A stretch of DNA of 64,000 nt from an uncultured Thermoprotei archaeon (GTDB lineage: Archaea > Thermoproteota > Thermoprotei > Thermofilales > B15-G2), in NCBI GenBank assembly GCA_965367815.1, contig CBDUKN010000007.1, forward strand, positions 22,076-86,075, in the 5' to 3' direction. Within the stretch, counting starts at the first letter, position 1; every line of letters starts with the position of its first letter. The notes under the pieces were generated by a model that made no database searches, was not told the DNA's origin, and was given only the letters and a program-made list of their open reading frames with translations. The translations under genes were made by a program, and so were the position numbers. This document shows positions 21,993 through 51,664 of the stretch, in pieces.

Positions 21993-22073
21993 ACAAGTGA
22001 ATACTCAGGTTTTGTAATAAAACACTTTGCTGTCAATAAACATAAAAGCAAGTTAAACGTAAATAATCCTGCT

Positions 22074-22493
22074 GTGAGTAAAGTAAGCAAAGAATACATT
22101 AAAAGTGTTTTAAAGGAAATACAGGATGCTTTAGATGAACTAAAGACTATAACTAAATTTAGTGAATCTGATTTTATGTCTAGTAGAACACTTAGATTTT
22201 CAGCTAGATTCTCAATAATACAGATAGTAGAAGCTGCATCTGACCTAGGAATAGCAATACTCGAAAAAGACTTTTCGGAGACAGCTGAAAGCTATAGGGA
22301 AGTTTTTTCAAAACTAGCTTTGAAAGGAGTAATTAAATCTGAAACAGCCGAAGAGATGGAAAAAATAGCATCTCTAAGAAACATGATTATTCATAGATAC
22401 TGGAGAATTGATGATAGGAAAATATATAGAGATGCTATTTCGGGAAACTTTCGAGAGCGGTTATGTTTATTGTTTCTTGTTCCACCAATATAG
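22074..22493 (+). CDS. HEPN-domain protein (DUF86/HepT-like toxin), probably 3'-altered
   Basis: It has the Rx4H motif 'LRNMIIHRY'. The start is moved to in-frame GTG 22074 because the listed ORF start overlaps the divergent sulfatase gene. The last ~14 aa (RERLCLLFLVPPI) look atypical. Confidence 0.7.
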   Translation: MSKVSKEYIKSVLKEIQDALDELKTITKFSESDFMSSRTLRFSARFSIIQIVEAASDLGIAILEKDFSETAESYREVFSKLALKGVIKSETAEEMEKIASLRNMIIHRYWRIDDRKIYRDAISGNFRERLCLLFLVPPI

Positions 22494-35885: not shown

Positions 35886-38800
35886 ATGCTTAAAGGGAAA
35901 TTATTAGCTTTCATACTAGGATTAACTCTAATATCAGCGGCTCTGCTAGCGCCTATTTCAGCTGTACCAATGTTTACCATAAGAGGATATGTTAAAACAT
36001 GGAAAGGAGAGCCTCACACCAATACTATAGTCGTGGCATTCGATATAGCAAACTACGAAGTAAGAGGAGTGACTAAAACAAATGCTAGCGGATACTTTGA
36101 AATTACAGTACCGAGAGGCTATAAGTACGTAGTATTTATTCTGCCGCTCAACGCTAATGGAACAGCTCTAAGCCATGTACCAGAAATAGCCGACTTACAT
36201 TCATTTGAAGACTTAGTTGAAGTCACTATAAACTTCAAGGCATACCCAGCAGCATTTGTTAAAGTCTACGGAACAATACACTATGTTGGGGGAGATTGGC
36301 TCGAAATATTTTCACTTAAAGTACTAGATACAAGCGGAACAAGGATATCTGAAGTACTAGACGCAGGTAAAGCAGTATACTCAAGAGAGTTCGTGGGTAA
36401 AGGTGAAGTAAAAGTATCTCTTGTCGACGAATATGGCACAGCGTCAAGTTTCCTCGTATACTATGAAGTAGGAGTAAGGAGAGGAAAACTGCCTGCAGGT
36501 CTAGCCGATAAAAGCATAGCTATAGTTCCTGCAGAAAAACCAGTTATAGTTGAGTTCACGACAAGCATAATAGATAACCGTAAGCCACCGTTCCTTAGAG
36601 AACCAATACACAGAGTAAAATTCACTATAGGAGATCCACTCAACCCGCTAACACTAAAACCCGGAGAAAAAGTATTATTTGATATCGAGAAAGAGTCCTT
36701 GAAGAGAATTATCCAGGAAGTTAGAAGAGACGTCGATATAGCTGAATCACTCATAGAAGAAATGGAGCGAATGGGCTTCTACCTAGCTCCAGAGAGAGCA
36801 GACTTAGCTAAAGCTATAGCGCTAATAGAAGAAGCAAAGCTCGCCTATGAGCAGAACCAGCCAGTAGAGCAGATAATAGAGAAGCTTGAGAGAGCATACG
36901 TTATAGCGACACAAGTAGTAGCTGGACGAGTATTTTTCCTCAAAACAGTTGCTTTAGAGGGAGCGCCTCTTCTCTCATACTTCATAGCACTCTTCGCAGC
37001 AGTAATGGCCTACTACTTCTTCGAAGACCCCAAGAAAAAACTATACTCGTTCATAGCGTTCTTCGCAGCCTTCATGATAATATTCGCGCTATCTTACCCA
37101 GGATTCCCACTACTATGGAACAACAGAAGAGACCTCTTCCTAATCTCAGTATCTACAGCCTTCTTCGGAGTACTCTTCTTACTATTCTACTTACCCATCA
37201 AAATAAAGGAAGCAGAGCTCCCAGGAACATTCAGAAGAGGAGCAATACTGGCAGTAACATTCTCACTTGCAAAGAGATTCTCTAGACTCAAGAAAACTAG
37301 AACAGGTATAGTAGTGTTCTCTCTAGCGGCTCTAATCTGGGCGTTTACAGTACTAGCATCTATTTCAACAGTATACGGCATATGGAGCGCTGAAGTACCT
37401 TCAGTAACCAAGGTAAACGCGCTAGTGGTAAAGCACTTAATAAATGAGACAACTATAAGTTCACTAGGCTATTTCTCTGACTACCAGTGGTTCGTCCAGC
37501 AGCTAGGCAACGATAGTGTATCAGTAGTAGTCTATAACGATCCGACAATTAAGCTAACTATACTCATTACTTCACCTGAAGGAAAATCTGTTGAAGTCAA
37601 AGCCTTCATGGGAGTCTCAGAGATAGAAGACAAAATTACAGGCATATCAAAAATAATAGTTGAAGGAGACTGGTCAAAAGTAGAGGAAAAGAACTCTGTC
37701 TTCTTACCTTCAACTCTAGCTGAGAAGCTTGGAGTGAAAGTAGGAGATGTAGTTAAAATAGAAGTATATAGGCCGGGAGTAGAAATACCTGTATCAGAAA
37801 AATACGTTGTCGCAGGAATATTTGATGAACTGTCTCTAGACAGAATAAAAGATATCGATGGAACACCGCTTAAACCACTAGTTCTAGTGAAAGGAGGCTT
37901 TGCTCCAGCAAACTCAACAGACATAATTATTGGCAACTGGGAGTACTTACTCAAAGAAGTTCTCCTTGAAGAGAAAGCACTATTCTCAACAGTATTTAAG
38001 ATATACAGAATAGCTGCAGTAGGGTCATCAGATGTACTGAAGAGCGTAGCCAGAAGATATATTGAAAGAAAAGGTGAAGGCTACTATGTTTACGTAAATA
38101 CTGAAGGCAAGTGCTACAAACTTTTCTTCGGACAGAAAGTAGAAAACATCTTAATGAGAAACGTTGACTTCATAATACCAATAGCAATAGTAATCTCGGT
38201 AGTACTTGTATCAATGTACAGTATAGTAGAGGAAAGAAGAAGAGAAATATTTATCTTCAACGCTATAGGCTTCAATCCAATGCACATAGCCTTCCTATTC
38301 TTAGCGGAGTCAATAGTCTACGGACTCATATCAGGAGGCCTAGGATACATAGCTGGAATAGTCACCTTCAGAGTAATGGCAACATACTTCTCGTCACTAA
38401 ACCTCCTAGTAAGAGAAAAGCTAGAGTGGTACTGGAGCATCATAGCAATATTTATCTCAATACTAGTAGCCATGATCGCTTCCTTCAAGCCAGCACTCAA
38501 AGCAGCCATGATGTACACTCCATCAAGAGTACGCAGAGTAAAGGCCACTGAGGCAGAAAAACTCAAACGCGAAGAAAAAATCCTAGTAACCTACGTAGGC
38601 AAGAGGTATCTACTATCAGCTAAAATCAAGGAAGATGAGGCCGTAATATTCTTCTCGTTTATATACTCAAGGCTCAAGGACATGGAGTCAGGATACACTG
38701 AGAGAGTAGAAGATCTGCAGGAATATGATGAAGAAGAGCTTCCCGACGGAACACTAGTAAAGAGATTCACCTTCAAGTGCGTGCTCTTAGTTGAAGGAGA

Positions 38801-38996
38801 GCGCGTAGTCATAGACAACGACTTGAGGTGCACAAAGAGTTCTAAAGAGAAGTTCTATAGAGTAGAGCTCTACGCGAAGCCTCATGGCGAAAAAGAAATC
38901 CCGCTGAGGTACCTTGATAGAGTAGCCTCAATGATCAACGATATACTCAAGTCATGGGAAGAAGAAAGAAAGAGGCTGCTGTCGTCGCGCCGATAA
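35886..38996 (+). CDS. Secreted-domain / FtsX-MacB-type permease fusion protein (P1)
   Basis: It has a signal peptide, a CarboxypepD_reg-like domain (RGYVKT..TNASGYFEITVPRG) and a 3-TM bundle. Next come MacB-type TM1, a periplasmic-domain motif 'LPSTLAEKLGVKVGDVVKIEV' and the FtsX core 'EERRREIFIFNAIGFNPMHIAFLFLAESIVYGLISGGLGY'. It ends in a ~170-aa cytoplasmic tail. SD GAGGTG lies upstream. Confidence 0.75.
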   Translation: MLKGKLLAFILGLTLISAALLAPISAVPMFTIRGYVKTWKGEPHTNTIVVAFDIANYEVRGVTKTNASGYFEITVPRGYKYVVFILPLNANGTALSHVPEIADLHSFEDLVEVTINFKAYPAAFVKVYGTIHYVGGDWLEIFSLKVLDTSGTRISEVLDAGKAVYSREFVGKGEVKVSLVDEYGTASSFLVYYEVGVRRGKLPAGLADKSIAIVPAEKPVIVEFTTSIIDNRKPPFLREPIHRVKFTIGDPLNPLTLKPGEKVLFDIEKESLKRIIQEVRRDVDIAESLIEEMERMGFYLAPERADLAKAIALIEEAKLAYEQNQPVEQIIEKLERAYVIATQVVAGRVFFLKTVALEGAPLLSYFIALFAAVMAYYFFEDPKKKLYSFIAFFAAFMIIFALSYPGFPLLWNNRRDLFLISVSTAFFGVLFLLFYLPIKIKEAELPGTFRRGAILAVTFSLAKRFSRLKKTRTGIVVFSLAALIWAFTVLASISTVYGIWSAEVPSVTKVNALVVKHLINETTISSLGYFSDYQWFVQQLGNDSVSVVVYNDPTIKLTILITSPEGKSVEVKAFMGVSEIEDKITGISKIIVEGDWSKVEEKNSVFLPSTLAEKLGVKVGDVVKIEVYRPGVEIPVSEKYVVAGIFDELSLDRIKDIDGTPLKPLVLVKGGFAPANSTDIIIGNWEYLLKEVLLEEKALFSTVFKIYRIAAVGSSDVLKSVARRYIERKGEGYYVYVNTEGKCYKLFFGQKVENILMRNVDFIIPIAIVISVVLVSMYSIVEERRREIFIFNAIGFNPMHIAFLFLAESIVYGLISGGLGYIAGIVTFRVMATYFSSLNLLVREKLEWYWSIIAIFISILVAMIASFKPALKAAMMYTPSRVRRVKATEAEKLKREEKILVTYVGKRYLLSAKIKEDEAVIFFSFIYSRLKDMESGYTERVEDLQEYDEEELPDGTLVKRFTFKCVLLVEGERVVIDNDLRCTKSSKEKFYRVELYAKPHGEKEIPLRYLDRVASMINDILKSWEEERKRLLSSRR

Positions 38997-38997
38997 A

Positions 38998-40584
38998 ATG
39001 TTAAGTAAATATTTGGACAAAGAATTTTTGTTAACTTTATTTATTCTAATTATTTTGCTTATAGAAATAATAGCATTATTTATACTACCTAGCTTTAAAG
39101 TAAAAAAGTTAACTAGAGAAGAATACTTAGCGAAAGCTATTGAAGCCTACGAGTGGATGATGCAGTTCCAGATAACTCCTCCCGGCACTCCATGGGGATG
39201 GCACCTGAACTGCAGAGACGCATGGGGAGGACTAGCAGGCTACTACACCAGACACTGCAAGTGGGCAGCAGTGTACGGTGCTGAAAGCTTCTATCAGCTC
39301 TACATAGCCTCACACGACGTAGGCTGGTTCTTGGAACTCGGAGTAGACCTATATAATATAACCGGCGAAGAAAAGTACCTTAAAGCTACTGAACTAGCAG
39401 CACAGTGGGCTCTCAGAATACAAGTAGGGTACAGTTCTTGGCTTAAAAAATTCGAAAAGCGCTACATTATGCCTCAAAAAAGTGAACGCAGTGTTAGCTG
39501 GAGATACGTTCCTGGTATAAAGTTTTCTAATGAGGTCATTGGAGCATACACTGAAGGAATGTTTGTTTTCAGCGGCGAACCACCATATCTTCATGATTGG
39601 AGTGAAGGAGTATGCTACGCTGAGCCAGCACTTTGGGTTGCGCCCGAGCATGTCATACCTATAGCTAAAGGTTTACTAAAACTATACTTAGCAACAAAGA
39701 ATAAAACATACTTAATGTCAGCTATGAGGGCACTCGACTTTATAGCTAGAATGCAGTCTCCTGAAGGCGGTATATACACGTGTTATCCTCCGAATGCCTA
39801 CGGAATTAGAATGAGTGATACAGCTAGTGCAGCTGAACTTTTCCTTTATGCCTACATAGTGGTAGGAAACAAAACTTATCTCGAAAGAGGACTTAAGGCA
39901 TGTGACTTCATGATAAGCAAGCAAGTAGCTTACGGCAGGTGGAGAGGAGTGCTGCCTCACTTGTCTACAGCTGGAGGTTCTTGGAGAAAACACAGTTATT
40001 TTACAGGCGACGCTGCTGAGGCTATTATAGCCTGGTTAAAAGCATATGAGCTTACGGGTGAATATAAGTATCTGGAGGCGGCTGTAAGAGCAGCTTACTT
40101 TCTTCTTAGAATGCAGGAAACAGACGCCAGTAAGCCTTGGGGTACTAAGATATATTCATGGGATAAGCGTGCAGTAGGAGGATTCTACTGGGCCTATGTG
40201 CCAGGCTACGGCATCTTGGAATACCAATTTGTTTCATCAACTACGTCAGCCGCCATAGCTTTACTCAAATTATACACTGTAGTCGAAGAACCTATTTTCT
40301 TAGAAAGCGTGAACTTGGCTTTAAAATGGCTTCTCGAGACAGAAATATATTCTCCTTCAAACACATACTTAGATCTTCCCGGCTTAACCGTAGTAAGCGA
40401 TCCTCACGGACTTTATAAAAGCGGATATGTCCCACTATACGGTAAGTATTACGATGAAATCCCCGGAACAATGACAGGAGACCCCGAGCAAGGCTTCTGT
40501 GTAGCAATGGCTGCCTCCGGTCCCTGCTACCTCTTCCTTGAAATATACAGATTATACCATAAAGTATATAATCAGCAGAAGTAG
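38998..40584 (+). CDS. Membrane-anchored extracellular alpha/alpha-toroid (prenyltransferase/terpene-cyclase-like repeat) protein
   Basis: It has an N-terminal TM anchor, then repeated 'RMQ/KQ..G.W/Y' units (RMQSPEGGIY, SKQVAYGRW, RMQETDASKPW). Its start is 1 nt after the upstream stop. Confidence 0.45.
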   Translation: MLSKYLDKEFLLTLFILIILLIEIIALFILPSFKVKKLTREEYLAKAIEAYEWMMQFQITPPGTPWGWHLNCRDAWGGLAGYYTRHCKWAAVYGAESFYQLYIASHDVGWFLELGVDLYNITGEEKYLKATELAAQWALRIQVGYSSWLKKFEKRYIMPQKSERSVSWRYVPGIKFSNEVIGAYTEGMFVFSGEPPYLHDWSEGVCYAEPALWVAPEHVIPIAKGLLKLYLATKNKTYLMSAMRALDFIARMQSPEGGIYTCYPPNAYGIRMSDTASAAELFLYAYIVVGNKTYLERGLKACDFMISKQVAYGRWRGVLPHLSTAGGSWRKHSYFTGDAAEAIIAWLKAYELTGEYKYLEAAVRAAYFLLRMQETDASKPWGTKIYSWDKRAVGGFYWAYVPGYGILEYQFVSSTTSAAIALLKLYTVVEEPIFLESVNLALKWLLETEIYSPSNTYLDLPGLTVVSDPHGLYKSGYVPLYGKYYDEIPGTMTGDPEQGFCVAMAASGPCYLFLEIYRLYHKVYNQQK

Positions 40585-40591
40585 GAGGTAG

Positions 40592-42445
40592 ATGTATATG
40601 TTTGATAAAGCTTTTCAGTTGGCAATAATGATTTTCTCGAGCTTAATGATGGCACAGCTTTTCTCTAGAACTTTATTCGAAAAAGAGTTTTACAGAAAAG
40701 TAAACTTCCTGTTAATATTTCTTGTATCAGTCTTACTCATGTATAAAATAGAGCCAATGCCCTTCGAACTAGCTCTTTCGCTTATAGTGCCGCCCTTTAG
40801 ACTAGAGTACTTAATGACTTTTATTCTAGCGTTTATACCCTTCCTTATTCCTTTAGCTATACTATTTTCACGCGGCGAAACGTGGCTACTCGCAGAGATA
40901 GTCGTACGTTTTCTTAGAAGAAGGCGCCTTAGAACACTATTAAATGTAATGACAGTAGCCTTAGTACTCTCGGTACTAACCTCGGTTGCCGCTATATCGC
41001 CGCTAAAATCATTTTATGTAATGAAAATAGCACAGACACCAGCAGAGCTAAAAGAGCTGTGCAAGCACCACCACGTATACATATTGCTCTATAAGGAATA
41101 TACCTGGATTGCATCTACTGAGGCAAGTATACAGAAGGAAGAAATGAAGTCGCTGACACTGGAAGTGAAAACAGGCTTCTTGTCACTTTTCAGCAAACCT
41201 GAAGCAGTAATAGACTTCATGTACACTGAAGGCCTAGCTGACGGGAAAAAAGTTCAAATTCTCATAACCGATACTAACACTTTACAAGAGATCTTTCCAT
41301 CAAATTTAATATTAAAAAAATTAAATGAAAAAACACTAGCTTACGCCAATTCATATACTTTAATAAATACTACAATCAAAATAAACAGTATTGATCGCGA
41401 ATTTAAGCCCAGCGGATTATTTAATTTAACAGAAGTGAAAATAACAAGAGACATAGCTATTCTAACAAAAACTCCTTCAATCTTAATCGACATTAAAGCA
41501 CTTAAACCAGAAGAGATTTTAAACCTCGTAGATGCAGGAGCCTTAAAGTACGTAGTTGTCGCAGTAAATCATGCTGTTAGCAAATCGAATCTAGAAAAAT
41601 TCATTAAGTTATTTTCAAGTGAAGCGAGCTACCAAGAAAAAGCTCTTGTATACACACCACTAGTATTGCAAATAGATGAAAATAACGTAATGATGTATTT
41701 CACTATAGGCACATACTACATGTTTTCAGGCGAAATAGGGTACTTGTTCTTTGCAGCACTATCAATTTTCCTACTCCTATTTTCAACAATTCTAGGAACT
41801 GTATATGAGAGAAGCAAAGAGTACTCCATCCTAGCCTGTCTAGGGGCAACTCCTAGTAAAATATACCTTGTCATGTTCCTTGAAGGAGCCTACCTAGCCT
41901 CCCTTGGAGGAGTACTCTCAATGTTTATTGCATATCCTATAATAAGGGAAGGGATATCAGCTTACTACAAATCAAACTTGCCTTCAATATTCTTTCTGTC
42001 ACTAGGCACAAGCTACCTAGCAACAATAGCCTCATATTTAGCTCTAAGAATTAAAGGAATACGTGAAGTTACTCCAAGCCGCGTAATAAAATACACTGCG
42101 GAAAGAAAGAAAACAGGGGGAGAATTCGAAGTACCCATAAAAATTCACGACTGGAGTAGTTTCAAGCATTTCCTCAAAGAAATCGAAGGAAAAAACGTTG
42201 AACCAGGAATAAAAGTACTAAAGGTATCCGAGGAAAACGGAAATCTAAAAGCACTAGTCGCATGTGGTATAGATAGAGAAGCCCTATACATGTTTACATT
42301 AATTTATTCAGGAGAATCTGTAAAAATCAGGGTTGCAGGCGAAAGAACATGGACAGCTGAGCACTCCAGATTATATGACCTCGCTGTAAGAAGCTTTAGA
42401 AAACTAGCCTTAAGATACTCACTCAAAGAAAAATTAAACAAGTAA
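40592..42445 (+). CDS. FtsX-MacB-type permease-like protein without ectodomain fusion (P2)
   Basis: It has an N-terminal TM bundle, 'RRRRLRTLLNVMTVALVL' (TM1), a ~240-aa extracytoplasmic domain and the FtsX core 'YERSKEYSILACLGATPSKIYLVMFLEGAYLASLGGVLS'. It ends in a ~130-aa tail. SD GGAGGT lies upstream. Confidence 0.7.
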   Translation: MYMFDKAFQLAIMIFSSLMMAQLFSRTLFEKEFYRKVNFLLIFLVSVLLMYKIEPMPFELALSLIVPPFRLEYLMTFILAFIPFLIPLAILFSRGETWLLAEIVVRFLRRRRLRTLLNVMTVALVLSVLTSVAAISPLKSFYVMKIAQTPAELKELCKHHHVYILLYKEYTWIASTEASIQKEEMKSLTLEVKTGFLSLFSKPEAVIDFMYTEGLADGKKVQILITDTNTLQEIFPSNLILKKLNEKTLAYANSYTLINTTIKINSIDREFKPSGLFNLTEVKITRDIAILTKTPSILIDIKALKPEEILNLVDAGALKYVVVAVNHAVSKSNLEKFIKLFSSEASYQEKALVYTPLVLQIDENNVMMYFTIGTYYMFSGEIGYLFFAALSIFLLLFSTILGTVYERSKEYSILACLGATPSKIYLVMFLEGAYLASLGGVLSMFIAYPIIREGISAYYKSNLPSIFFLSLGTSYLATIASYLALRIKGIREVTPSRVIKYTAERKKTGGEFEVPIKIHDWSSFKHFLKEIEGKNVEPGIKVLKVSEENGNLKALVACGIDREALYMFTLIYSGESVKIRVAGERTWTAEHSRLYDLAVRSFRKLALRYSLKEKLNK

Positions 42446-42765
42446 ATACTGCACACATTACCGTCCAAGAAAGCAATAATTTTAGTTCAATTAACTTTAA
42501 ATTTATCTTTCCTGTAGCCAATCAATCTTTAACACACTACTATAAAATTAGTACTAATTTCGGCAGCAATATTCCTATTTTTTGCTCATAACTACCTTTA
42601 CGTTCTTATAAAAAGACTTTATTAAAGCAGTCTTAAACTAAATGCGTTAATAACTAAACATATGGCTCCTAGCAACAATTTTCATAAAACCCTTACGACA
42701 CGTTATGACCCTGAGAAGAAATTTGACAAAGGTAAAAAATACTGACGGTTCATATATCTTTTTCG

Positions 42766-42781
42766 GAAAGCCTTAAATAAT
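42766..42781 (+). promoter_or_regulatory. BRE/TATA promoter for 42831..44858
   Basis: 'gaaagccttaaataat' combines purine-rich BRE-like bases with a TATA-like box ~55 nt upstream of the ATG. Confidence 0.35.
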
Positions 42782-42830
42782 TTTGTTTTTCTAGTTAAAA
42801 CAGCATTTGATACATATTGAGGGATAGAAT

Positions 42831-44858
42831 ATGGTGGAGGAGACGAAAGTAAAAGAAGTAGAGGCTCTAAAAGTACTCAAATCACCGCGCCTCATAATCC
42901 TCTGGATTATAATTCTACTAGTATTCATCCCCTATCAAGCATTCAGACTCTATGGATGTTACGGCAACGGAACATCGTTCATGAGCCTAGTGCTCTTACT
43001 AACAGCTATAATCGGCTTATTTAGCAAGAAGTTTAAGCTATCACCTCAAGAAGCAACAATAGCCTTTGCCATAGCGACAGTAGCAGCTGATATCTCAATC
43101 TATACAGCTTTCTACGATAATCCACTATCAGGCATACCCTTCATTAACCTATATGGCGGACCAAACCTCGATAAAGTAAAGCAGTGGATACCTTCATGGA
43201 TGTTTATACCTACAGAAGTACTAGAGCCTGCCAGAAATGGTGGAGCAATGCTCCCACTAGGGCCGCTCTTACCAGTACTAGCTTTCTTAACAATATTCTT
43301 AATAGCACTCAAGTTGCTACAGCTAGCCACAGCAGGCATTATTGCAAGACAGTTTGTAGAAATAGAGCGCCTTCCATTCCCAGCCTTCATGCCAAGCCTC
43401 TACGTAATCAAATACTATTCCGAAGAAGTAGGAAAGAAGCCTAGACTACTATCATGGAAAGGCAACACTCCGTTCTGGCTGGGCTTCATCATAGGATTTC
43501 TAATAGATGCTATAGCTATTATGGAAGTATTTAGCGAAGCTGTCACAGGAAAAACCTACATACAGCTTCCTGCAAGCACAGGATTCATAGGACAGTTCGT
43601 AGTTGATCTAAGGTTCCTAGAACCGTACTTGCCGGGCGCAATGCTGTACTGGTATCCAGGACTAGACTTCGGTTTCTTCCCAGTCGCTCTCTTCTTGCCA
43701 TTAGATGTAATGGCTACGGCAATTCTATGGTTCTTCCTATGGTATATCTTCTATCCAGCAACAGTTAATATCCTTGGAATATATCCGACAAAAGTTACCG
43801 CAGGACAGCTAGGAGGAGGTGCTGTAGGAGCATGGCCATTTACATGGGTTGGTCAGATAGCAGTCCCATTTGCATTAGGCCTCTATCCACTAATATTTAG
43901 CTGGAGGTACTTCAGAGACTTCTTCAGAAAAGCTTTTAAGAGAACAGACCTCAATCCATCGCTCCCAGAAACTCTGCCAGTCTACACGGGTATTGTAGCT
44001 TTCATAATATTGCTAGCTCTGCTAGCGACTATAGGCATGCCAATAGTGCTAGCGTTTCTCTGGCTAATAGTTCTGACAATCTGTTGGACAGGTATGGCTA
44101 GAGTAGCAGGCGAATACTTCACTCAGCCACTGGCCTGGGCGTGGGGAGACCTCTACAGAGGATTCATGGGCTTCTCTCAGACAGTCATGGGCTGGCCTAA
44201 CCCCTATCCATCTAAAGAAGCATGGGGCACTATGATGGGCATGAGGCTGACTTACAATACTGTAGAAAGAGAGGTAGACAGCACATGGGGCTTCTTAGGC
44301 TGGTACAGGGTAGCGAGAGACACTAACACAAGCTGGAAAGCAGTCTATATAGCCCAGCTCGTAGCGGTAATTATTGGGGTAATTCTTGCCTGGCCAGCTA
44401 TCTACGGTCTAGCCTACTACAGAGGTCTTGAGGTAGGCTGGAACGGATACTTTACAGCTACATCCATCAGATACGCTGCTAGAAGATTTGTGGACTACGG
44501 TCTAGCAGGAACAGTAAATGCTATTAGTCCATGGAACATGCTAAAGATCGGATGGCTCTTTGGAGGCATCGTAATGGTCTTTGCTATAATGTGGCTTAGA
44601 CTCAGATTCCCATGGTTCTTCCTCAACCCAGTAGGTATGCTATGGCAACACCCATGGTGGCTTGGTGCAACTATGCTAGCTTTCGTTATAAAGTACATCG
44701 TTATCAAGGTGGGCGGTGCACAGGCTAATGAGAAATACTTAATACCCTTCGCTACCGGCTGGGCTTTCGGATCAGCTATAGGTGGACTAGTGACATACTG
44801 GCCCGAAAACATTTATAGAGCGTTCTTCAACAGACTCTTCCCGTACTTCTGGTGGTAA
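42831..44858 (+). CDS. Polytopic membrane protein, OPT/YSL-superfamily-like (Q1)
   Basis: The 675-aa protein has about 14-16 TM segments. 'EIERLPFPAF' aligns with 'EIEKLPFPIG' of the paralogue 49730..51664 and recalls the OPT/YSL 'KLTYPSGTATA' loop. Confidence 0.5.
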   Translation: MVEETKVKEVEALKVLKSPRLIILWIIILLVFIPYQAFRLYGCYGNGTSFMSLVLLLTAIIGLFSKKFKLSPQEATIAFAIATVAADISIYTAFYDNPLSGIPFINLYGGPNLDKVKQWIPSWMFIPTEVLEPARNGGAMLPLGPLLPVLAFLTIFLIALKLLQLATAGIIARQFVEIERLPFPAFMPSLYVIKYYSEEVGKKPRLLSWKGNTPFWLGFIIGFLIDAIAIMEVFSEAVTGKTYIQLPASTGFIGQFVVDLRFLEPYLPGAMLYWYPGLDFGFFPVALFLPLDVMATAILWFFLWYIFYPATVNILGIYPTKVTAGQLGGGAVGAWPFTWVGQIAVPFALGLYPLIFSWRYFRDFFRKAFKRTDLNPSLPETLPVYTGIVAFIILLALLATIGMPIVLAFLWLIVLTICWTGMARVAGEYFTQPLAWAWGDLYRGFMGFSQTVMGWPNPYPSKEAWGTMMGMRLTYNTVEREVDSTWGFLGWYRVARDTNTSWKAVYIAQLVAVIIGVILAWPAIYGLAYYRGLEVGWNGYFTATSIRYAARRFVDYGLAGTVNAISPWNMLKIGWLFGGIVMVFAIMWLRLRFPWFFLNPVGMLWQHPWWLGATMLAFVIKYIVIKVGGAQANEKYLIPFATGWAFGSAIGGLVTYWPENIYRAFFNRLFPYFWW

Positions 44859-44877
44859 ACTAGAAATAGTTTAACAA

Positions 44878-44894
44878 TTTTTTATTTTATTTTT
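44878..44894 (+). terminator. T-tract terminator
   Basis: 'tttttttattttatttt' begins 20 nt after the stop at 44858. Archaeal termination occurs at oligo-T tracts. Confidence 0.45.
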
Positions 44895-45096
44895 AATGTG
44901 TTTTAAATAGTTAGAGTCTTCTTATGCTGTATATGCCTTAATTGAGGCGTAGGAAGTATCCTTTACTACAAGTTCTCGTTATGGTTATGTCTAGTACTAG
45001 GTAAACCGGGAGTCATAATATGGAAGCTTAGCTGACACAATTTTAACAATTATTGGGTTATCTCTATTGAAAAATCTTTTATAAGAACATAAATTA

Positions 45097-45109
45097 GGTT
45101 TATATAGCC
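45097..45109 (+). promoter_or_regulatory. TATA box for 45129..51664
   Basis: 'ggtttatatagcc' is centred ~26 nt upstream of ATG 45129 (leaderless geometry). Confidence 0.4.
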
Positions 45110-45128
45110 AAAGGTTTACTGTTAATTG

Positions 45129-48100
45129 ATGGTGATAAATTCAAAGAAAGCTTTTACACTAATATTCATTATAGTTCTGAGTGTAGTGATTGCCACGGTA
45201 CCTGAAGCAACTGTTTCTCGCAGAGAAACAATTAACTGGGAGGATCTTGAAGCATTCTTAAAGAACTTCAATTACTCCAAGGTTCTCAAACATATCGAAT
45301 ATTTTGGCTCGCTTGATAGTCGCTTGACAGGGTATCCCGGTGCCTGGGAAGCTCTACGCTATATATATTCAGAGCTGGAGCTCTATGGGTACGACTTAGT
45401 CTATTTCCAGAATTTCACCACAGTTGTTCCAGTAGTGCGAGAAGCTTACATTGAAGTTAAGAGCGGCGAGACTGTCAGCAAGTTTAAAGTATACCCTGTT
45501 TGGCCTAATCTTGTTCAAACATCTCCTACTGGACCCGAAGGTATCTCGGGGAAGTTGCTCTACTTAGGTAAAGGGGACTTAGAGAGCATCAAGGGAATAG
45601 ACATAAAAGATGCTATTGTTCTCCTGGATTATAACAGCGGAGACAATTGGGTGAAGTTAGCCGAGCTAGGAGCAAGAGCTGTAATTTTCATAGAGCCTTT
45701 ATCAACCAACAGATTCGAGTCTTTCAATAAATTTGTCTACGTAAATCTTTATTTCCCTAGAGTCTATGTTGACAGAAAGACTGGTATCGAACTAAAAAAA
45801 CTGTGTGAAAAAGATGCCGCTACAGCTAGGCTTATTCTAGATTACTCGATGGAAGAGGTTGTTTCAGCGAATGTAGTTGCTTTCCTGAAAGGAAAAGGCA
45901 GCACTAATGATTCTCTTGTTTTAGCAGCATATATTGACGATTGGTCTCCTGTACCCGAGCTCGCTAGCCACTATGATAGCGCCTGCGGTGCAGCAGTCTT
46001 ACTCGAAGTAGCACGCTTACTAGCTAAAAGTAAGCCAGAACTCAACGTCATTGTAGTATTCTTTACGGGTCACTGGGAAGGTTTATGCGGACCTAGAGCT
46101 TTCGTAGAAGAGGTACTCGAAGTTTTTGCTGACCGCACATTGCAGAACCATCCAATATGGAACCAAAGTGTTCCTAAAACATTTCTTTCATTGGATTTAT
46201 CTACTGGTAGCAGTAGTGTTGCCCTACTCCACTCAGGCGGATTTTATCACGTAGCAGGTCCCAGTATTTTTGAAGAATGCGTAGACATGTTCAGGGGAAT
46301 GGATTTCCTTCTAAGAGAGTATGGTAGGAGTAACAGGCTAGCTGACTTAGTCAAAAAATACTCAGGCAGGGCTCCTGAAATATATTACCAGCTTATAGAT
46401 CAATCTGGAGGCGCTTACGTGGAGGCTGGTGAGCTAGAATACTTTACTCCTGTGCCCTACAAGTACATCGCTGATGTAGAGCCATGGCTTCAAGCGGGAC
46501 TACCAGGCTATACGCTCTTTACTGCTTTCGACTACAGGTTTACATGGTTCACTCCTCTTAAAGAACGAGTACACTTTAACCCGGATAACCTTAAGCCTCA
46601 AGCATACTATGTTGCAGCACTATCTTACATTTACTCCAACGTCGTAACAAGTGATTACCCACCGAGGAGAGTATGGGGCCCGACTCGCTACTATTTCCCA
46701 GGACCCTTCGCCCCATTTGTTCCGGGCTTCACTAAGATGAGAGGTCAAGTCGTAGTATATTTGCCTATTTCGCCTAGACAGTATGAGCCGCTAATGAATG
46801 AAACTATAGTAGCTATAGTGGATTCAGAGGATCAATACAATATTTTCAACTATATTTTCTTAAAAACAAAGCCTAATGGAACTTTTGTTGTCCATGGTCT
46901 AGCCATAGATAGAGGAGGGGGAGCAAGAACTTATATGGCTAGGCTCTACGTAATTGACTATAAGAACAAGGGAAGAATTCTCTATACAAATGATTACGGC
47001 AAATATGGTGCTGAAGCAATATACACTACGAGAACGTTCAGTGTGAGAGAAGGAGTCTATGGATGGCCGCAGCCTTTGCGTTTCGTCGTATTCAAGTGTG
47101 CCAGCATAACTATGTTTAGTGTAACTTTTCCTCAAGGAATGCTTGACTTATACAACTACATGAGTATATACAAGACTCTTCAAGCCCGAGATGTTTCAGT
47201 AATAGTTAGAGAATTTACATCTCACTCAGAGGTATATCACTATGGTTATGAAGTAGACCCTATGTCTAGGATACTAGTTGTCTATGTCAAGCCTGAAGAG
47301 AGAATAGAAATAGAAGTACACGTTAGGTCTCAGGAAGGGCCAATCTACTTAACAATTCTACTTTTAAATGCTTCTGAAAAATACCCGGAGGGTGCTGGTT
47401 ACTATCTTAATGAGCCGGGAGAATCTCTGGTTTTATTAAAGTCTACTTTGCACTACGTCGAGAACTTCTACTGGCTAAGTAGATATAGAATAGACTTGGC
47501 TGCGAGGTTCGGTGTCTTTGACGCGGAGTCTCAGAGAAGTTTGAGGATGCTTGAAGAGTGGCGTAATTTAACTAAAAAGTATTTAGAGGAAAAAGATTAT
47601 AGTAAAGCCTACTATGCTTCGCTAATCGCTTGGGCTTGGGCACAAAAGCTCTATTACTCGTCGAGAGGGCTTATTCAAGGCTCATCTACAACTACTGTAG
47701 TCTACTTCGTTATGTTGATCCCATTTGCTTTCGTGCTAGAGAGACTTTTATTTGAGTTTTACGAGGGCAGAAAAAGACTCTTAACAATAGCGTGTATCTT
47801 TGCAATATTTATTGTCTTGATGTGGCTTAACCATCCAGGTTTCCATTTAGTAGCGAGTATGCCTACACTGTTGCTAGGCTTCGTTATACTAACTATTTCG
47901 GTAGTAATAGGTTTCCTACTCTACACAGATTTCCAAGGCGTAATGTGGAGAGTAAGGAAAAAGACTCTTGGAGTACACTTCGTAGAAGTGAGTAGATGGG
48001 ATGTCATGGTTTCGTCGCTTTACTATGGTGTAGTAAATATGAAGAGGCACAAGGTTACTTCGCTTCTTACTCTGACAGCAATAGTCATCATAACAATGTC

Positions 48101-49727
48101 GCTAATATCACTTACATCAATTACGACGCATACTGTTCTAAAAACATTGAGTATTACTGCTGAGCCTAGTTATACAGGGCTTTTAGCTAGGTATGTCTCT
48201 TATGATACCTTGCCGGAATCGTTTGTGGAGTGCCTAAAGGTGTTAAGTGAAGAAGAAGTAGCTAGACGTGCCTGGCTTTATGGGCCTATTGAAGGATCGA
48301 CTCTATGGGGAGAAATACCTGTAGAGTATGAGGGTAAGAAAGAAACTGTAAGAGCTATAGTAGGCTTAGATGAAGTAGACGGTAAGGTCTTAGGCATAGA
48401 AGCCGCTACTATTTATAGAAGATGGAGTGAGCTTTTCCGCGAAATATCGCCCGACGTAATATCTTGTATAATAAACCGTAAGCTCGCAGAATTCCTTGGC
48501 ATAAAGTCTGTGCCTGCGAAAGTAAAAATATGGGGCATTGACTTTATAGTAGTCGATATATTTGATCCAGCTGCACTCGGTGGAGTAAGAGATATTGATA
48601 ATGAGCCTATAGCTCCTTTCAATATATGGTCTACTGAAGCAGGGGCATCTGGCATCGTTGTTACAGAGAGGCTTCAGTGGGATACTATTATAATTATTCC
48701 CTACAGTGTCTTAGAAAAGTTCCCTGGCTCTATAAGAGCGAGCACAGCTGTTGTAGGCGAAGACTACACGAAACTAGATAAGTTTGCCAGAATACTCGCG
48801 GAAATGACCTATAACATGTATCTCTTTGTCTCTGACGGAAAGAAAGTGAAAGGATATGTTTCGTTAGTAGGTCTCGCTGCTAGAGGATGGTCATTCTTAC
48901 TACCGGCTATAGTTATAGCTTCGCTTATAATGTTCAATATGATGATTTCTCTAGTACAGCAAAGAACAAATGAAGTTAAAACTCTTTCAGCTCTAGGTCT
49001 TGCTCCACTACATGTTGTTGGCCTCTTCTTCTCTGAAGCTATAGCCTATGCGCTCATAGGAGGAGTAATAGGATATACTACCGGTATATTTGTACTCAAG
49101 GCTTTGACACCACTAATGGGCCCCGGCTTCTATCCCAATTACACTTCAGGTGCAGTAGTGTTAGCGATAGCACTTTCATTTGTCACTGTAATAGTACCCT
49201 CAATTATTCCTGCCTTCAGAATGGGTGCTCTCGTAACACCATCGCTTGAAAGAAAATGGAAGATTACTACTAAACCTAGAGGAGATATATGGGAAATTCC
49301 TACGCCGTTTAGAGCAACTAAGGTAGAAGCTCCCGGCGTGCTTCTTTATGTTAAAGAGTTTCTCGATGCTCATAGAACAGAAAGAGCCCATAGATGGTTT
49401 GCTTCACTTGAAGAAGCTAAAATAACCTCATTTGAAATGGAGGGTAAAAAAGGCTATGCGCTTAAAACTAGAGTAATGCTCTATCCATGGGAGGCTGGAC
49501 TAAAACAGGAAGTTGAAATAGCTGCGTTACCAGAAGACGGTATTTCTCGATTCACTGTAGCGCTGCGCCTCGAGTCAGGGCCAAGAGAAGTCTGGATACG
49601 TTCCAACAAGGCGTTCCTAGATATCCTTAGGAAGCAGTTCTTATTATGGAGAAGTATTGTTCCTTCTGAGAGAAGAGAATACGTTAAGAAGGCTTTAGAT
49701 CTTGTGGGCTTGAAGGAGGGTGAGTAG
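45129..49727 (+). CDS. PA/M28-like ectodomain fused to an FtsX-MacB-type permease (P3)
   Basis: It has a signal anchor and a PA domain (GKLLYLGKGD..AELGARAVIFIEP). The M28-like core has altered ligands (AAYIDDW, HYDSACG, TGHWEG). Next come a TM bundle, 'NMKRHKVTSLLTLTAIV' (TM1) and the FtsX core 'QQRTNEVKTLSALGLAPLHVVGLFFSEAIAYALIGGVIGY'. It ends in a ~200-aa tail. I prefer ATG 45129 over the listed TTG 45126. Confidence 0.75.
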   Translation: MVINSKKAFTLIFIIVLSVVIATVPEATVSRRETINWEDLEAFLKNFNYSKVLKHIEYFGSLDSRLTGYPGAWEALRYIYSELELYGYDLVYFQNFTTVVPVVREAYIEVKSGETVSKFKVYPVWPNLVQTSPTGPEGISGKLLYLGKGDLESIKGIDIKDAIVLLDYNSGDNWVKLAELGARAVIFIEPLSTNRFESFNKFVYVNLYFPRVYVDRKTGIELKKLCEKDAATARLILDYSMEEVVSANVVAFLKGKGSTNDSLVLAAYIDDWSPVPELASHYDSACGAAVLLEVARLLAKSKPELNVIVVFFTGHWEGLCGPRAFVEEVLEVFADRTLQNHPIWNQSVPKTFLSLDLSTGSSSVALLHSGGFYHVAGPSIFEECVDMFRGMDFLLREYGRSNRLADLVKKYSGRAPEIYYQLIDQSGGAYVEAGELEYFTPVPYKYIADVEPWLQAGLPGYTLFTAFDYRFTWFTPLKERVHFNPDNLKPQAYYVAALSYIYSNVVTSDYPPRRVWGPTRYYFPGPFAPFVPGFTKMRGQVVVYLPISPRQYEPLMNETIVAIVDSEDQYNIFNYIFLKTKPNGTFVVHGLAIDRGGGARTYMARLYVIDYKNKGRILYTNDYGKYGAEAIYTTRTFSVREGVYGWPQPLRFVVFKCASITMFSVTFPQGMLDLYNYMSIYKTLQARDVSVIVREFTSHSEVYHYGYEVDPMSRILVVYVKPEERIEIEVHVRSQEGPIYLTILLLNASEKYPEGAGYYLNEPGESLVLLKSTLHYVENFYWLSRYRIDLAARFGVFDAESQRSLRMLEEWRNLTKKYLEEKDYSKAYYASLIAWAWAQKLYYSSRGLIQGSSTTTVVYFVMLIPFAFVLERLLFEFYEGRKRLLTIACIFAIFIVLMWLNHPGFHLVASMPTLLLGFVILTISVVIGFLLYTDFQGVMWRVRKKTLGVHFVEVSRWDVMVSSLYYGVVNMKRHKVTSLLTLTAIVIITMSLISLTSITTHTVLKTLSITAEPSYTGLLARYVSYDTLPESFVECLKVLSEEEVARRAWLYGPIEGSTLWGEIPVEYEGKKETVRAIVGLDEVDGKVLGIEAATIYRRWSELFREISPDVISCIINRKLAEFLGIKSVPAKVKIWGIDFIVVDIFDPAALGGVRDIDNEPIAPFNIWSTEAGASGIVVTERLQWDTIIIIPYSVLEKFPGSIRASTAVVGEDYTKLDKFARILAEMTYNMYLFVSDGKKVKGYVSLVGLAARGWSFLLPAIVIASLIMFNMMISLVQQRTNEVKTLSALGLAPLHVVGLFFSEAIAYALIGGVIGYTTGIFVLKALTPLMGPGFYPNYTSGAVVLAIALSFVTVIVPSIIPAFRMGALVTPSLERKWKITTKPRGDIWEIPTPFRATKVEAPGVLLYVKEFLDAHRTERAHRWFASLEEAKITSFEMEGKKGYALKTRVMLYPWEAGLKQEVEIAALPEDGISRFTVALRLESGPREVWIRSNKAFLDILRKQFLLWRSIVPSERREYVKKALDLVGLKEGE

Positions 49728-49729
49728 TT

Positions 49730-51664
49730 ATGGGGAGGTTTAGGTTATTCAATGAAGAAGAAGGATTAACTTGGAGGTCGTTTTTAGCAATAGTGTTTTC
49801 AGCGGTAGTAATACTTCCTATACAAATTTACATGACTCTAGCTACTCCAATATCAGTAGCTTGGCCCGCTGTAATTCTATTGCTCTTCACTGAGCTTGCC
49901 TATTTCTTCCACTCGCCTCTATCCAGACAGGAGGGCTTCATAATATATTTCGTCTCATCAGTAGCTATAGGAGGATCGGTACTCGTAGAGGGAATGATAC
50001 CTTTCCTTAACTTCCCCTACCGCGTATACATGGTTCAAAGCCCCTACTTCAAGGCACTAGGCTTCGATAAAGAGGTGCCCTGGTGGTTTGTTCCGCCTAT
50101 ATCTTCAGAAGCTATACTGAAGAGAACTCTGCTTCACCCAGACTGGCTATTCTACATAGGACTGCTTATCTTAGGCTTCATCATATATCTCGGCACAATA
50201 CTGCCTATGACCTTCATATTAGCTCAGCTCTACATAGAAATAGAGAAACTGCCATTCCCTATAGGAAGAGTACAAGCCGAGACAATAATCAGCTTGACTG
50301 AAAGAGACCCTGAGAGATTCGATAAATTCATACTGTCAGCAGTAATAGGAGTAATATATTCACTCATCCTCTACGGCTTCCCAATAATAACGCTAACATT
50401 CTTCGGCAAAGCATTTTCTGTTACAGGGTCTATGATATGGTCGTTCCTCGACTTGACTCAGGCACTACAAGTAATCATACCGGGAGCAATCTTCGGCGTA
50501 TCGCTAGACCTCCTCAACGTAGCTTCAGCATGGGTCATTCCCTCTTACCTAGTGATTACAGCAACTATAGCATCTATACTAGCCTATGTTGTCGGAAACG
50601 CTATTGCGCTAAAACTTCCGCTAGATATATTCAAGTGGTGGCAACAAGACTGGTTCCCTGGAGCAGGACTAGTCTGGCTCTACCAGCGCTCGTACTTTGA
50701 CTTATGGCTTAGTGCTTACATAGGTGTATCGATAGCTGCCGGTATAATGCCGTTTATCCTCGAGTACAAGAACTATGCCAGAGCTTTCTCTAATCTAAAA
50801 TCTCTCCCCGAGAGCGTGAAGAAAGCAGGGTACATATCGCTGACTCCTCTTCTCACAGTATACTTCCTTTCCGTAGCCGCCTCAATAGCGCTATTCAAGT
50901 ATCTTGTGCCTAGATTCCCCATAATACTGCTTCTGCCTTTCGTTGCCTGGGGCTTCATATGGCCTTTCATCAGCGCCTGGTCTATAGGTATGACAGGATT
51001 TGCTCCAGCCCAGCCCCCGATGCTCAGAGAGGCAACTATTCTCTTCAGCGGATACAAGGATCTAGATGTATGGTTCGCTGGATGGGTTGCTCAGCCAGGA
51101 AATGCTCCAGGAGTAATAGTGAATGCATTCCAAGTAGGCTACTGGTGTGGAGTAACTCCGAAAACATACCTCAAGGCGGCTTTCATGGCAATGCCTCTGC
51201 TCTTCATATTCTCGCTAATATACGTCGACATGTTCTGGCGCATGGCTCCAATGCCCTCAGCCTTCTACCCATGGATCGAGGTAACGTGGCCTATTTCTGT
51301 GCTAAACTGGGTTATCTGGCCTACATTCGTGAGAAAAGGCTTCCTGCCTACAATAAGCTCAGAGTTTATAATAGGGTTCTTCTTAGTATCAGCGATTCTC
51401 GCAGTGGTCTTAAAGATACTTAAGCTACCTCTAGCAGTGCTAATAGGTGTTCTCTGGGGAATTACTTCTATGCCTCATCCGCTAGTAGGAGCAACAATAG
51501 GAGTAATTGTGGGCAAGATACTCGAAAAGAAGCTTGGTAAGGAAAAGTGGGACCGCGATAAAGTAGTCATAGTAGCTGGCTTAACTCTAGGAAACGCTGT
51601 AGCAATAGCTTTCGCCGCCTCGTTGCTACTAATATCGAGGTCGCTATGGGCTCTACCATACTAA
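49730..51664 (+). CDS. Polytopic membrane protein, OPT/YSL-superfamily-like (Q2), paralogue of 42831..44858
   Basis: The 644-aa protein carries 'EIEKLPFPIGRVQAETIISL'. Its start is 3 nt after the P3 stop, with GGAGGG upstream. Confidence 0.5.
   Translation: MGRFRLFNEEEGLTWRSFLAIVFSAVVILPIQIYMTLATPISVAWPAVILLLFTELAYFFHSPLSRQEGFIIYFVSSVAIGGSVLVEGMIPFLNFPYRVYMVQSPYFKALGFDKEVPWWFVPPISSEAILKRTLLHPDWLFYIGLLILGFIIYLGTILPMTFILAQLYIEIEKLPFPIGRVQAETIISLTERDPERFDKFILSAVIGVIYSLILYGFPIITLTFFGKAFSVTGSMIWSFLDLTQALQVIIPGAIFGVSLDLLNVASAWVIPSYLVITATIASILAYVVGNAIALKLPLDIFKWWQQDWFPGAGLVWLYQRSYFDLWLSAYIGVSIAAGIMPFILEYKNYARAFSNLKSLPESVKKAGYISLTPLLTVYFLSVAASIALFKYLVPRFPIILLLPFVAWGFIWPFISAWSIGMTGFAPAQPPMLREATILFSGYKDLDVWFAGWVAQPGNAPGVIVNAFQVGYWCGVTPKTYLKAAFMAMPLLFIFSLIYVDMFWRMAPMPSAFYPWIEVTWPISVLNWVIWPTFVRKGFLPTISSEFIIGFFLVSAILAVVLKILKLPLAVLIGVLWGITSMPHPLVGATIGVIVGKILEKKLGKEKWDRDKVVIVAGLTLGNAVAIAFAASLLLISRSLWALPY

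Follow-up and report, generated by a model that had tools for sequence, protein, structure and literature searches.

A stretch of 64,000 nucleotides (nt) from an uncultured Thermoprotei archaeon (contig CBDUKN010000007.1; hereafter the window, in whose positions all coordinates without a locus number are given) carries on its plus strand, at 42831-51664, the archaeal form of a widespread multi-gene membrane system. The conserved core of this system consists of three genes: Q1 (42831-44858), which encodes a polytopic protein of 675 amino acids (aa) with the domains DUF6785 and DUF6784, P3 (45129-49727), which encodes a MacB/FtsX-type permease of 1,532 aa and is called the giant in the following, and Q2 (49730-51664), which encodes a protein of 644 aa with a predicted divergent OPT/YSL fold. 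The parts are of known kinds, namely OPT/YSL, the MacB-fold permease of ABC (ATP-binding cassette) systems of type VII and the M28 fold; their combination matches no characterized system. An interpretation made earlier from the letters and translations (the sequence-only reading) had described a repeated two-gene module, in which an FtsX-like permease is followed each time by a Q protein (P2 with Q1, P3 with Q2). What was noticed there is borne out and holds more widely than described, while the module structure was misread.

Species genomes of the GTDB were scanned with the Q2 motif pattern, which returned more than 598 stretches, at least 545 of them confirmed. The best 80 loci, which come from other species, were analyzed, and giant, Q1-type and Q2-type genes were called in them with Hidden Markov Models (HMMs) built for this analysis (individual loci are given below by L numbers). 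The 80 loci derive from Thermoproteota, Bathyarchaeia, Brockarchaeota, Desulfobacterota, Latescibacterota, Gemmatimonadota, Armatimonadota, Nitrospirota, Acidobacteriota and Planctomycetota, and the synteny extends over no fewer than 10 bacterial and archaeal phyla. A giant was found in 65 of the 80 Q2-like loci, a Q1-type gene in 63 and both together in 58; most of the loci without a giant have short flanks. Directly after the giant a Q gene follows on the same strand in 63 of 66 cases (Q1-type in 38, Q2-type in 25) with a median gap of -1 nt, the stop codon of the giant typically overlapping the start codon of the Q gene behind it, and 54 of the gaps do not exceed 50 nt. The sequence-only reading would have been refuted if orthologs of Q1 and Q2 never adjoined FtsX-like genes; this is decisively not the case, and the frequency of the giant supports the proposed functional pairing of an FtsX-type with a Q-type protein. 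The neighbors of Q2 homologs with 24-35% identity are an M28 plus FtsX protein of about 1,500 aa and a DUF6785 gene. Even the most divergent giants (24% identity; L093-L095), with LysM- or PqqD-like ectodomains, are still accompanied by DUF6785, Q2-like, ATPase and minimal FtsX genes with overlapping gene boundaries. No Q gene adjoins one outlier giant, in which the ectodomain is GH2-like and the signature domain only partial. The giants of L093-L095 comprise 1,841-2,100 aa, with LysM-like or PqqD-like matches in place of M28, and the DUF6785/6784 proteins of these loci (L093 4117-6996, L094 14976-17891, L095 4025-6991) have about 960-990 aa and are about 300 aa longer than Q1.

In the window, the stop codon of P3 ends at 49727 and the ATG of Q2 begins at 49730; P3 and Q2 are a real conserved pair and translationally coupled. 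The longest open reading frame (ORF) of P3 opens with a TTG at 45126, and the ATG at 45129 was chosen by the gene callers in identical public contigs. The proteins of the window are 100% identical to those of a metagenome-assembled “Thermoprotei archaeon” genome. A T-rich tract, TTTTTTATTTTATTTTT, lies directly after the Q1 stop in the gap 44859-45128, and TATA-like boxes are located about 25-50 nt upstream of the starts of Q1 and P3 in the gaps 42446-42830 and 44859-45128 (tract and boxes were found by eye). These elements suggest that Q1 is transcribed separately from P3-Q2, in two archaeal units, Q1 probably being a unit of its own. Rfam and tRNA scans of the window yielded nothing. A further ORF of 154 aa (50959-51423, plus strand) lies in another frame within Q2 and is most likely a chance ORF in a stretch of higher GC content.

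The sequence-only reading had called Q1 and Q2 clear paralogs that share a loop E-I-E-[RK]-LPFP and similar C-terminal glycine-rich helices. ORF positions, motif and quoted peptides were located as described: the motif is E177-I-E-R-L-P-F-P184 in Q1 (43359-43382, plus strand; residues 170-184 read IIARQFVEIERLPFP) and E170-I-E-K-L-P-F-P177 in Q2 (50237-50260, plus strand; residues 163-177 read ILAQLYIEIEKLPFP). By BLASTP of Q1 against Q2 a 15-residue motif alone was aligned (E 0.007), so that a profile comparison was needed. One profile was built from Q2 and 22 homologs (23 sequences) and another from Q1 and five homologs (six sequences). With hhalign the two families were aligned end to end over 567 columns with a probability of 98.3% (E 2.2e-14), the C-terminal glycine-rich helices included, whereas the same method gave 0.7% when, as a negative control, the family of Q1 was compared with that of the polytopic giants. 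The similarity is therefore not one of composition only, and the homology holds, though not the word “clear”. One member of the Q2 family matches DUF6785 at 4.2e-7. In an alignment of 66 Q1-type and 93 Q2-type proteins the same small set of positions is kept in both families, namely (Q2/Q1) E68/E74, P117/P121, the motif E-[KR]-[LMI]-[PN]-F-P and four C-terminal glycines. Within the motif, E, L, F and P are present in 93 of 93 Q2-type proteins and K in 86, and the Q1 family (n = 66) has E in 65, R in 55, F in 61 and P in 66. Orthologs of each type exist in both Bacteria and Archaea. Since the divergence between Q1 and Q2 far exceeds that from their own orthologs across domains, the duplication is ancient and not local; by profile comparison, Q1 and Q2 are true but ancient, distant paralogs.

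Membership of Q2 in the OPT/YSL superfamily, which the sequence-only reading had proposed, is upheld by its relatives and by its predicted structure. PF03169 (profile length 623, gathering threshold 25.8 bits) is matched by 12 of the 23 members of the Q2 family; P0006, which is 45% identical to Q2 (E 2e-177), reaches 37.4 bits over profile positions 2-616 of 623, and the homologs P0011 and P0022 reach 65.3 and 43.4 bits. Q2 itself has no match to PF03169 or to any other Pfam model, and neither Q1 nor Q2 has a match in NCBIfam. The AlphaFold2 model of Q2 (pLDDT 85.7, pTM 0.86) matched barley HvYS1 in a Foldseek search of the PDB (7wsr/7wst; E 8.6e-11, probability 1.00 for 7wsr_A, TM-score 0.64/0.68). 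HvYS1 was the sole significant match, the next one having E>0.03 and a TM-score of about 0.1. At the level of sequence, neither the Q2 profile nor an OPT-positive homolog found any match in the PDB, even at E<=10. Q1 matches PF20581 (DUF6785) with 47.2 bits over residues 23-532 (cutoff 25) and PF20580 (DUF6784) with 29.0 bits over residues 574-654 (cutoff 26.4); its bacterial syntenic counterparts score 536-539 bits with the DUF6785/DUF6784 models. The HMM check against OPT and DUF families was thus positive for homologs of Q2 and, in the DUF models, for Q1, and negative for Q2 itself. Through its profile match to Q2, Q1 is tied in as a distant paralog of the OPT superfamily. The sequence-only reading had likened the Q2 loop to the KLTYPSGTATA loop of OPT/YSL transporters; the resemblance of the Q1/Q2 motif to K-L-T-[FY]-P may serve as a lead only. 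In the clade of peptide transporters the signature motifs of the family are NPG and KIPPR.

Like the OPT/YSL transporters (TC 2.A.67; PF03169; HvYS1, PDB 7WSR/7WST), whose fold the model of Q2 shares, Q1 and Q2 are polytopic proteins of about 640-675 aa. They differ from them in that Q2 falls below the Pfam model and Q1 is filed under DUF6785/DUF6784, in that neither family has a characterized member, and in that they occur as an obligate-looking pair of ancient paralogs adjoining a type VII ABC permease. HvYS1 is a homodimer that works by an elevator-like mechanism (PMC9691689). The activity expected of the family is cation-coupled uptake, with oligopeptides or metal chelates as substrates. 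Every characterized OPT member is an uptake symporter; prokaryotic homologs had not been characterized biochemically as of the review of the OPT family, and their genes often adjoin peptidase genes, contexts which suggest peptides (PMC3061005).

The giant consists of an N-terminal anchor, a PA plus M28-like ectodomain (45303-46520; aa ~59-464), extra transmembrane (TM) helices, a MacB-type permease with the layout TM1, periplasmic core domain, TM2-4, and a C-terminal cytoplasmic domain (49209-49724; aa 1361-1532), all on the plus strand. This architecture is kept in homologs down to 24% identity. The FtsX C-terminal permease domain with TM2-TM4 is encoded at 48891-49220 (plus strand; PF02687, E 5.9e-11; MacB matches in a PDB sequence search). 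FtsX domains are confirmed by Pfam matches to PF02687 in P1 (E 3e-11), P2 (E 2e-6) and P3 (E 6e-11). Orthologs of P3 additionally match PF12704 (MacB_PCD). A Foldseek search with the AlphaFold2 model of P3 residues 800-1532 (pLDDT 84.7) found MacB (5gko, E 1.6e-10) and, down to 1e-4, LolCDE, HrtBA, YtrEF, YbbAP and BceAB; on these profile and model matches the C-terminal half of P3 is classed as a MacB-fold, type VII ABC permease. ADOP and other orphan FtsX permeases (NCBIfam TIGR03434) resemble the P proteins in having no adjacent ATPase gene and in weak matches to P1, P2 and P3. However, these matches reach 20-32 bits against a family cutoff of 622, and P3 has one FtsX module, not a duplicated one, within a distinct architecture and with distinct gene partners.

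The ectodomain of P3 matches Pfam M28 (PF04389, 42.9 bits; cutoff 21.3), and residues 59-337 align across both PA and M28 with the PA-domain M28 aminopeptidase of Aneurinibacillus (PDB 2EK8; E 6.8e-10); in this it is also like the non-catalytic receptors of M28 fold. The canonical set of residues tested comprised the co-catalytic zinc ligands H, D, E, D/E and H and the catalytic Glu. Compared with 2EK8, HHD is replaced by YID and the EE pair (catalytic/ligand) by HW in P3, and the second His is absent. Of 56 giants, 30 have F and 12 have Y at the position of the first His, and only 5 have H there; 46 carry His instead of the catalytic Glu, the ligand Glu varies, and there is no second His, i.e., HxD has become [FY]xD and EE has become H followed by a varied residue. 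Because the canonical residues are replaced, the ectodomain is not a canonical M28 aminopeptidase and is probably non-catalytic; the frequent His at two M28 positions of the giants could represent a remodeled site. The names under which giants are filed in databases are “hypothetical protein”, “M28 family peptidase” and “FtsX-like permease family protein”; the widespread annotation as M28 family peptidase / FtsX-like permease is probably misleading in view of the absent canonical catalytic residues.

The last 172 residues of P3 form a signature domain of the giants: an HMM for which 54 further giants were used scores P3 at 3e-44 and does not score P1 or P2. Using phmmer, this domain was found in 1,289 clusters (50% identity) among 1.84 billion representative proteins; among the 150 matches listed it is always C-terminal, and the full-length proteins have about 1,430-1,585 aa. 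Its profile gave only noise against Pfam and PDB sequences. In the model the domain has the order beta-alpha-beta5-alpha (six strands), and in the Foldseek search with the whole 733-residue model as query its region matched Ara h 8, Bet v 1, TTHA0849 and Aha1 (E 0.008-0.06, target TM-score 0.3-0.4, probability up to 1.0). The domain is possibly an SRPBCC/Bet v 1-like helix-grip fold, in keeping with the order of strands and helices and the weak Foldseek matches; it differs from such domains in that these E-values reach only 0.008-0.06 and that Pfam and PDB sequences lend no support.

In many bacterial loci, two more genes belong to the neighborhood of the giant. In 32 of 50 bacterial loci the same strand encodes an ATPase of the LolD/MacB type (about 245 aa) no more than 6 kilobases (kb) from the giant. 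The second protein is a minimal FtsX of about 216 aa with about 45 residues between TM1 and TM2 and without a periplasmic core domain, which is conserved in 29 loci. It is located beside the ATPase gene at 1612-2262 in L052, at 1457-2185 in L070 and in 27 other loci of Desulfobacterota; the version of L008 carries an insertion of about 300 aa between TM1 and TM2. The operon of Desulfobacterota consists, in this order, of genes for the minimal FtsX, the LolD/MacB-type ATPase, the giant, the DUF6785/6784 protein and a Q2-type protein. The occurrence of ATPase and minimal FtsX in many bacteria implies that giant, minimal FtsX and ATPase constitute a heterodimeric, LolC/LolE-like type VII ABC engine. 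An Omp85-like gene upstream of the Desulfogranum operon (L052) was considered as a further component and rejected, as it is not conserved.

According to a recent report, every type VII ABC system acts by way of a partner of its own, i.e., EnvC, LolA, MacA-TolC or TesA (PMC12646458). The system described here resembles the known members (MacAB-TolC, LolCDE-LolA, FtsEX-EnvC/PcsB, HrtBA, YbbAP-TesA) in the predicted MacB fold of the C-terminal half of P3 and in the LolD/MacB-type ATPase and smaller second FtsX of the bacterial relatives, which suggest a heterodimer as in LolC/LolE; a dedicated partner appears to exist here, too. In contrast to the known partners, each of which is a periplasmic adaptor, chaperone or hydrolase, the partners are polytopic proteins of OPT fold, and the permease is a giant fusion of about 1,500 aa that includes an ectodomain like PA/M28, additional TM helices and a cytoplasmic domain peculiar to the family. 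We class the system as type VII ABC, its partners being of a new class.

With some reserve we favor the reading that the system captures and imports a peptide-like or amphiphilic ligand, which has a real chance of being correct and falls somewhat short of probable. Uptake is preferred because the characterized OPTs are uptake symporters and the contexts of prokaryotic OPT genes point to peptides. The giant and the second FtsX protein would form a LolC/LolE-like heterodimer, and mechanotransmission, driven by the ATPase where present, would move the large ectodomain. The ectodomain would capture or extract a peptide-like or amphiphilic substrate at the outer face of the membrane and hand it to Q1 and Q2, so that one substrate would be shared by both modules. 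In analogy to HvYS1, a homodimer of elevator type, Q1 and Q2 probably form a heterodimer, which would move the substrate inward by cation symport, as characterized OPT members do; the cytoplasmic C-terminal domain of the giant may receive or sense cargo. A stronger version, in which the giant, its FtsX partner (with the ATPase where present) and the Q1/Q2 heterodimer are united in one supercomplex, where a translocator of OPT fold and elevator type is loaded or gated through mechanotransmission at the expense of ATP, is on the doubtful side.

Several observations weigh against import by such a machine. An adjacent ATPase gene was found in none of 15 archaeal loci, where another site of the genome could still encode one, and the window contains no stand-alone ATPase, its only nucleotide-binding domains (NBDs) being those of fused exporters at 26993-30510; in this respect the archaeal loci differ from the known type VII ABC systems. 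Seven loci of Fimbriimonadales/Armatimonadota with full flanks have a Q2-like gene and neither giant nor Q1, from which it follows that Q2-type proteins can work alone; these bacteria seem to use the Q2-like protein by itself. In some lineages (L043, L081) no Q1 lies within 10 kb of the pair of giant and Q2, and no gene fusion of giant and Q was present among 210 retrieved proteins, including the outliers of 1,800-2,100 aa. The direction of transport is taken from the precedent of eukaryotic OPTs only, and the physical contact between giant and Q proteins is presumed. Furthermore, the M28-like ectodomain lacks the canonical catalytic residues, which leaves a simple logic of digestion outside and import inside unsupported; the idea, considered as a candidate, that a peptide importer is supplied by a catalytically active M28 aminopeptidase outside the cell was weakened in the same way. 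The lone Q2-like loci, each with flanks of 10 kb on both sides, are L031, L034, L038, L039, L040, L068 and L080. The two genes at 26993-30510 (plus strand) encode ABC half-transporters of 577 and 594 aa, each a fusion of a transmembrane domain with an NBD, with a stop/start overlap at 28726; they represent a probable heterodimeric exporter.

The same components may also work in the opposite direction. Q1 and Q2 would then carry a compound that is made in the cytoplasm and is amphiphilic or peptidic to the outer face, possibly with a hand-over by the cytoplasmic helix-grip-like domain, and the giant would extract or expel it from the membrane toward the envelope or S-layer, which would make the system an envelope-biogenesis, efflux or secretion machine comparable to LolCDE, MacB, HrtBA and YbbAP. 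The fold of P3 matches these systems, and the structurally characterized type VII ABC systems, YbbAP-TesA included, all act at the outer leaflet or in the periplasm and push outward; the extraction of hydrophobic compounds is described as well (PMC12646458). The weak likeness of the C-terminal domain of P3 to the hydrophobic-ligand-binding Bet v 1/SRPBCC fold in Foldseek and an ectodomain without canonical peptidase residues would also fit export. However, the characterized OPT members are all uptake symporters (PMC3061005), no conserved biosynthetic genes stand beside the cluster in the loci inspected, and diderm carriers show no conserved membrane-fusion or outer-membrane partner, the Omp85-like gene of L052 being unconserved. 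The helix-grip assignment itself is weak (E 0.008-0.06) and has no sequence support. We regard the outward direction as unlikely, yet worth keeping in view.

Giant and Q proteins might, on the other hand, form no complex at all and merely be co-regulated within one nutritional pathway, an FtsX-anchored ectoprotein binding or processing peptides or other oligomers that two independent OPT-type importers take up. The frequent proximity of prokaryotic OPT genes to peptidase genes (PMC3061005) and the solitary Q2-like genes of Fimbriimonadales are compatible with this, as are the free PA-M28 peptidase with intact catalytic motifs and the sulfatase encoded in the window, which suggest polymer scavenging; the variation of the giant ectodomains (M28-like, LysM, PqqD-like) is as expected of substrate-specific modules. 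What co-regulation leaves unexplained is the stop/start overlap of one permease family with a Q gene across Bacteria and Archaea, the joint retention of both Q paralogs in 58 of 80 loci and the private C-terminal domain, which was C-terminal in all 150 matches listed and belonged to giants of about 1,500 aa wherever the protein was full length. Moreover, the same operons encode an ATPase of their own and a minimal FtsX, which implies that the machine is active and no passive anchor. Mere co-regulation is accordingly held to be quite unlikely.

The organization of the window itself bears on the two-gene module of the sequence-only reading. On the plus strand between 35.9 and 51.7 kb six consecutive ORFs are found, and the trio is preceded by P1 (35886-38996; 1,036 aa), an FtsX-type paralog of the giant without M28-like and C-terminal signature domains, by a gene for a membrane-anchored, alpha/alpha-barrel-like (GH-like) protein of 528 aa (38998-40584) and by P2 (40592-42445; 617 aa), which is FtsX-type. 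These three tightly spaced genes (35886-42445, plus strand) are separated by 1 nt between P1 and the barrel-like gene and by 7 nt between the latter and P2, whereas 386 AT-rich nt lie between P2 and Q1. According to Pfam and the giant HMM, neither the M28-like domain of P3 nor its C-terminal signature domain is present in P2. In a relative with 63-69% identity (L090/L010) the gene order is giant-Q2-Q1-giant-Q2-[barrel-like]-[P2-like], so the pair of barrel-like gene and P2 moves as a block and lies downstream of Q2, and Q1 follows a Q2 gene. P2 belongs with the upstream barrel-like gene in a different, lineage-restricted unit. This unit looks like one of its own, with two FtsX-type permeases, a non-ABC extracellular partner and no ATPase; it may be a lineage-specific accessory and is outside the conserved core. 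Of the repeated module, P3 plus Q2 is retained as a conserved and coupled pair, and P2 plus Q1 is not.

A tandem duplication of an FtsX+Q cassette, with P2+Q1 and P3+Q2 acting independently in the same way, is compatible with the order P2, Q1, P3, Q2 on one strand, with the FtsX domains of P2 and P3 and with the homology of Q1 and Q2, but it is highly improbable and essentially excluded by the missing P3 domains and the spacing of P2, by the gene order of L090 and L010, by more than 55 other loci in which Q1 adjoins a giant or Q2 and never a P2-like gene, and by a divergence between Q1 and Q2 that is far greater than that of each from its orthologs in the other domain of life. The implied duplicated cassette thus gives way to ancient paralogs within a conserved unit of Q1, giant and Q2.

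In L090 (3301-18575; also in L010) two giant+Q2 pairs flank a single Q1, i.e., the giant+Q2 pair itself is duplicated. P1-like genes occur near the trio in L035 and L089 (Thermoproteota), and the N-terminal region of P1 matches giants at E 1e-13. P1 and P2 carry C-terminal extensions of about 135-150 aa with no detectable relation to the C-terminal domain of P3. The assumption that they share this domain was rejected at the level of sequence, as the HMM of the other giants scores neither of them and a three-way alignment is 24-25% identical.

Searchable literature yielded no work on DUF6785, DUF6784 or an association of FtsX with OPT, in line with the statement of the sequence-only reading that the arrangement had not been described. 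The main survey of OPT genome contexts mentions neither such an association nor a type VII ABC permease context (PMC3061005). The characterized type VII ABC systems (FtsEX-EnvC, LolCDE-LolA, MacAB-TolC, YbbAP-TesA) are each a distinct envelope machine defined by the partner; here a large family (signature domain in at least 1,289 clusters, at least 545 motif loci) is partnered with two OPT-fold polytopic proteins, and prokaryotic OPT proteins have essentially no experimental characterization. If the proteins cooperate physically, an ATP-driven mechanical module would be coupled to a secondary-transporter fold in a new way; that this amounts to a genuinely new hybrid transport machine is rather doubtful at present. 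If true, a function would be assigned to two Pfam DUFs and to the widespread annotation as M28 family peptidase or FtsX-like permease. The cultured carriers Desulfogranum marinum DSM 2058, Solidesulfovibrio aerotolerans DSM 16695 and Desulfovibrio sp. DV make the system directly testable.

Further genes of the window were recorded on both sides of the region. Downstream, at a distance of a few kb from the trio, 56993-58111 (plus strand) encodes another alpha/alpha-barrel-like protein, which is prenyltransferase/pectate-lyase-like. The free PA+M28 peptidase follows at 59715-61388 (plus strand) with intact zinc and catalytic motifs (AHHDH, GAADN, AEE, YHTD). Upstream, a TnpB/Cas12f-like fragment of 257 aa (OrfB_IS605 and TNB domain; 23732-24505, plus strand) and, near it, a gene for a HepT-like RNase (21948-22493, plus strand) are remnants of a mobile element and a toxin-antitoxin system.

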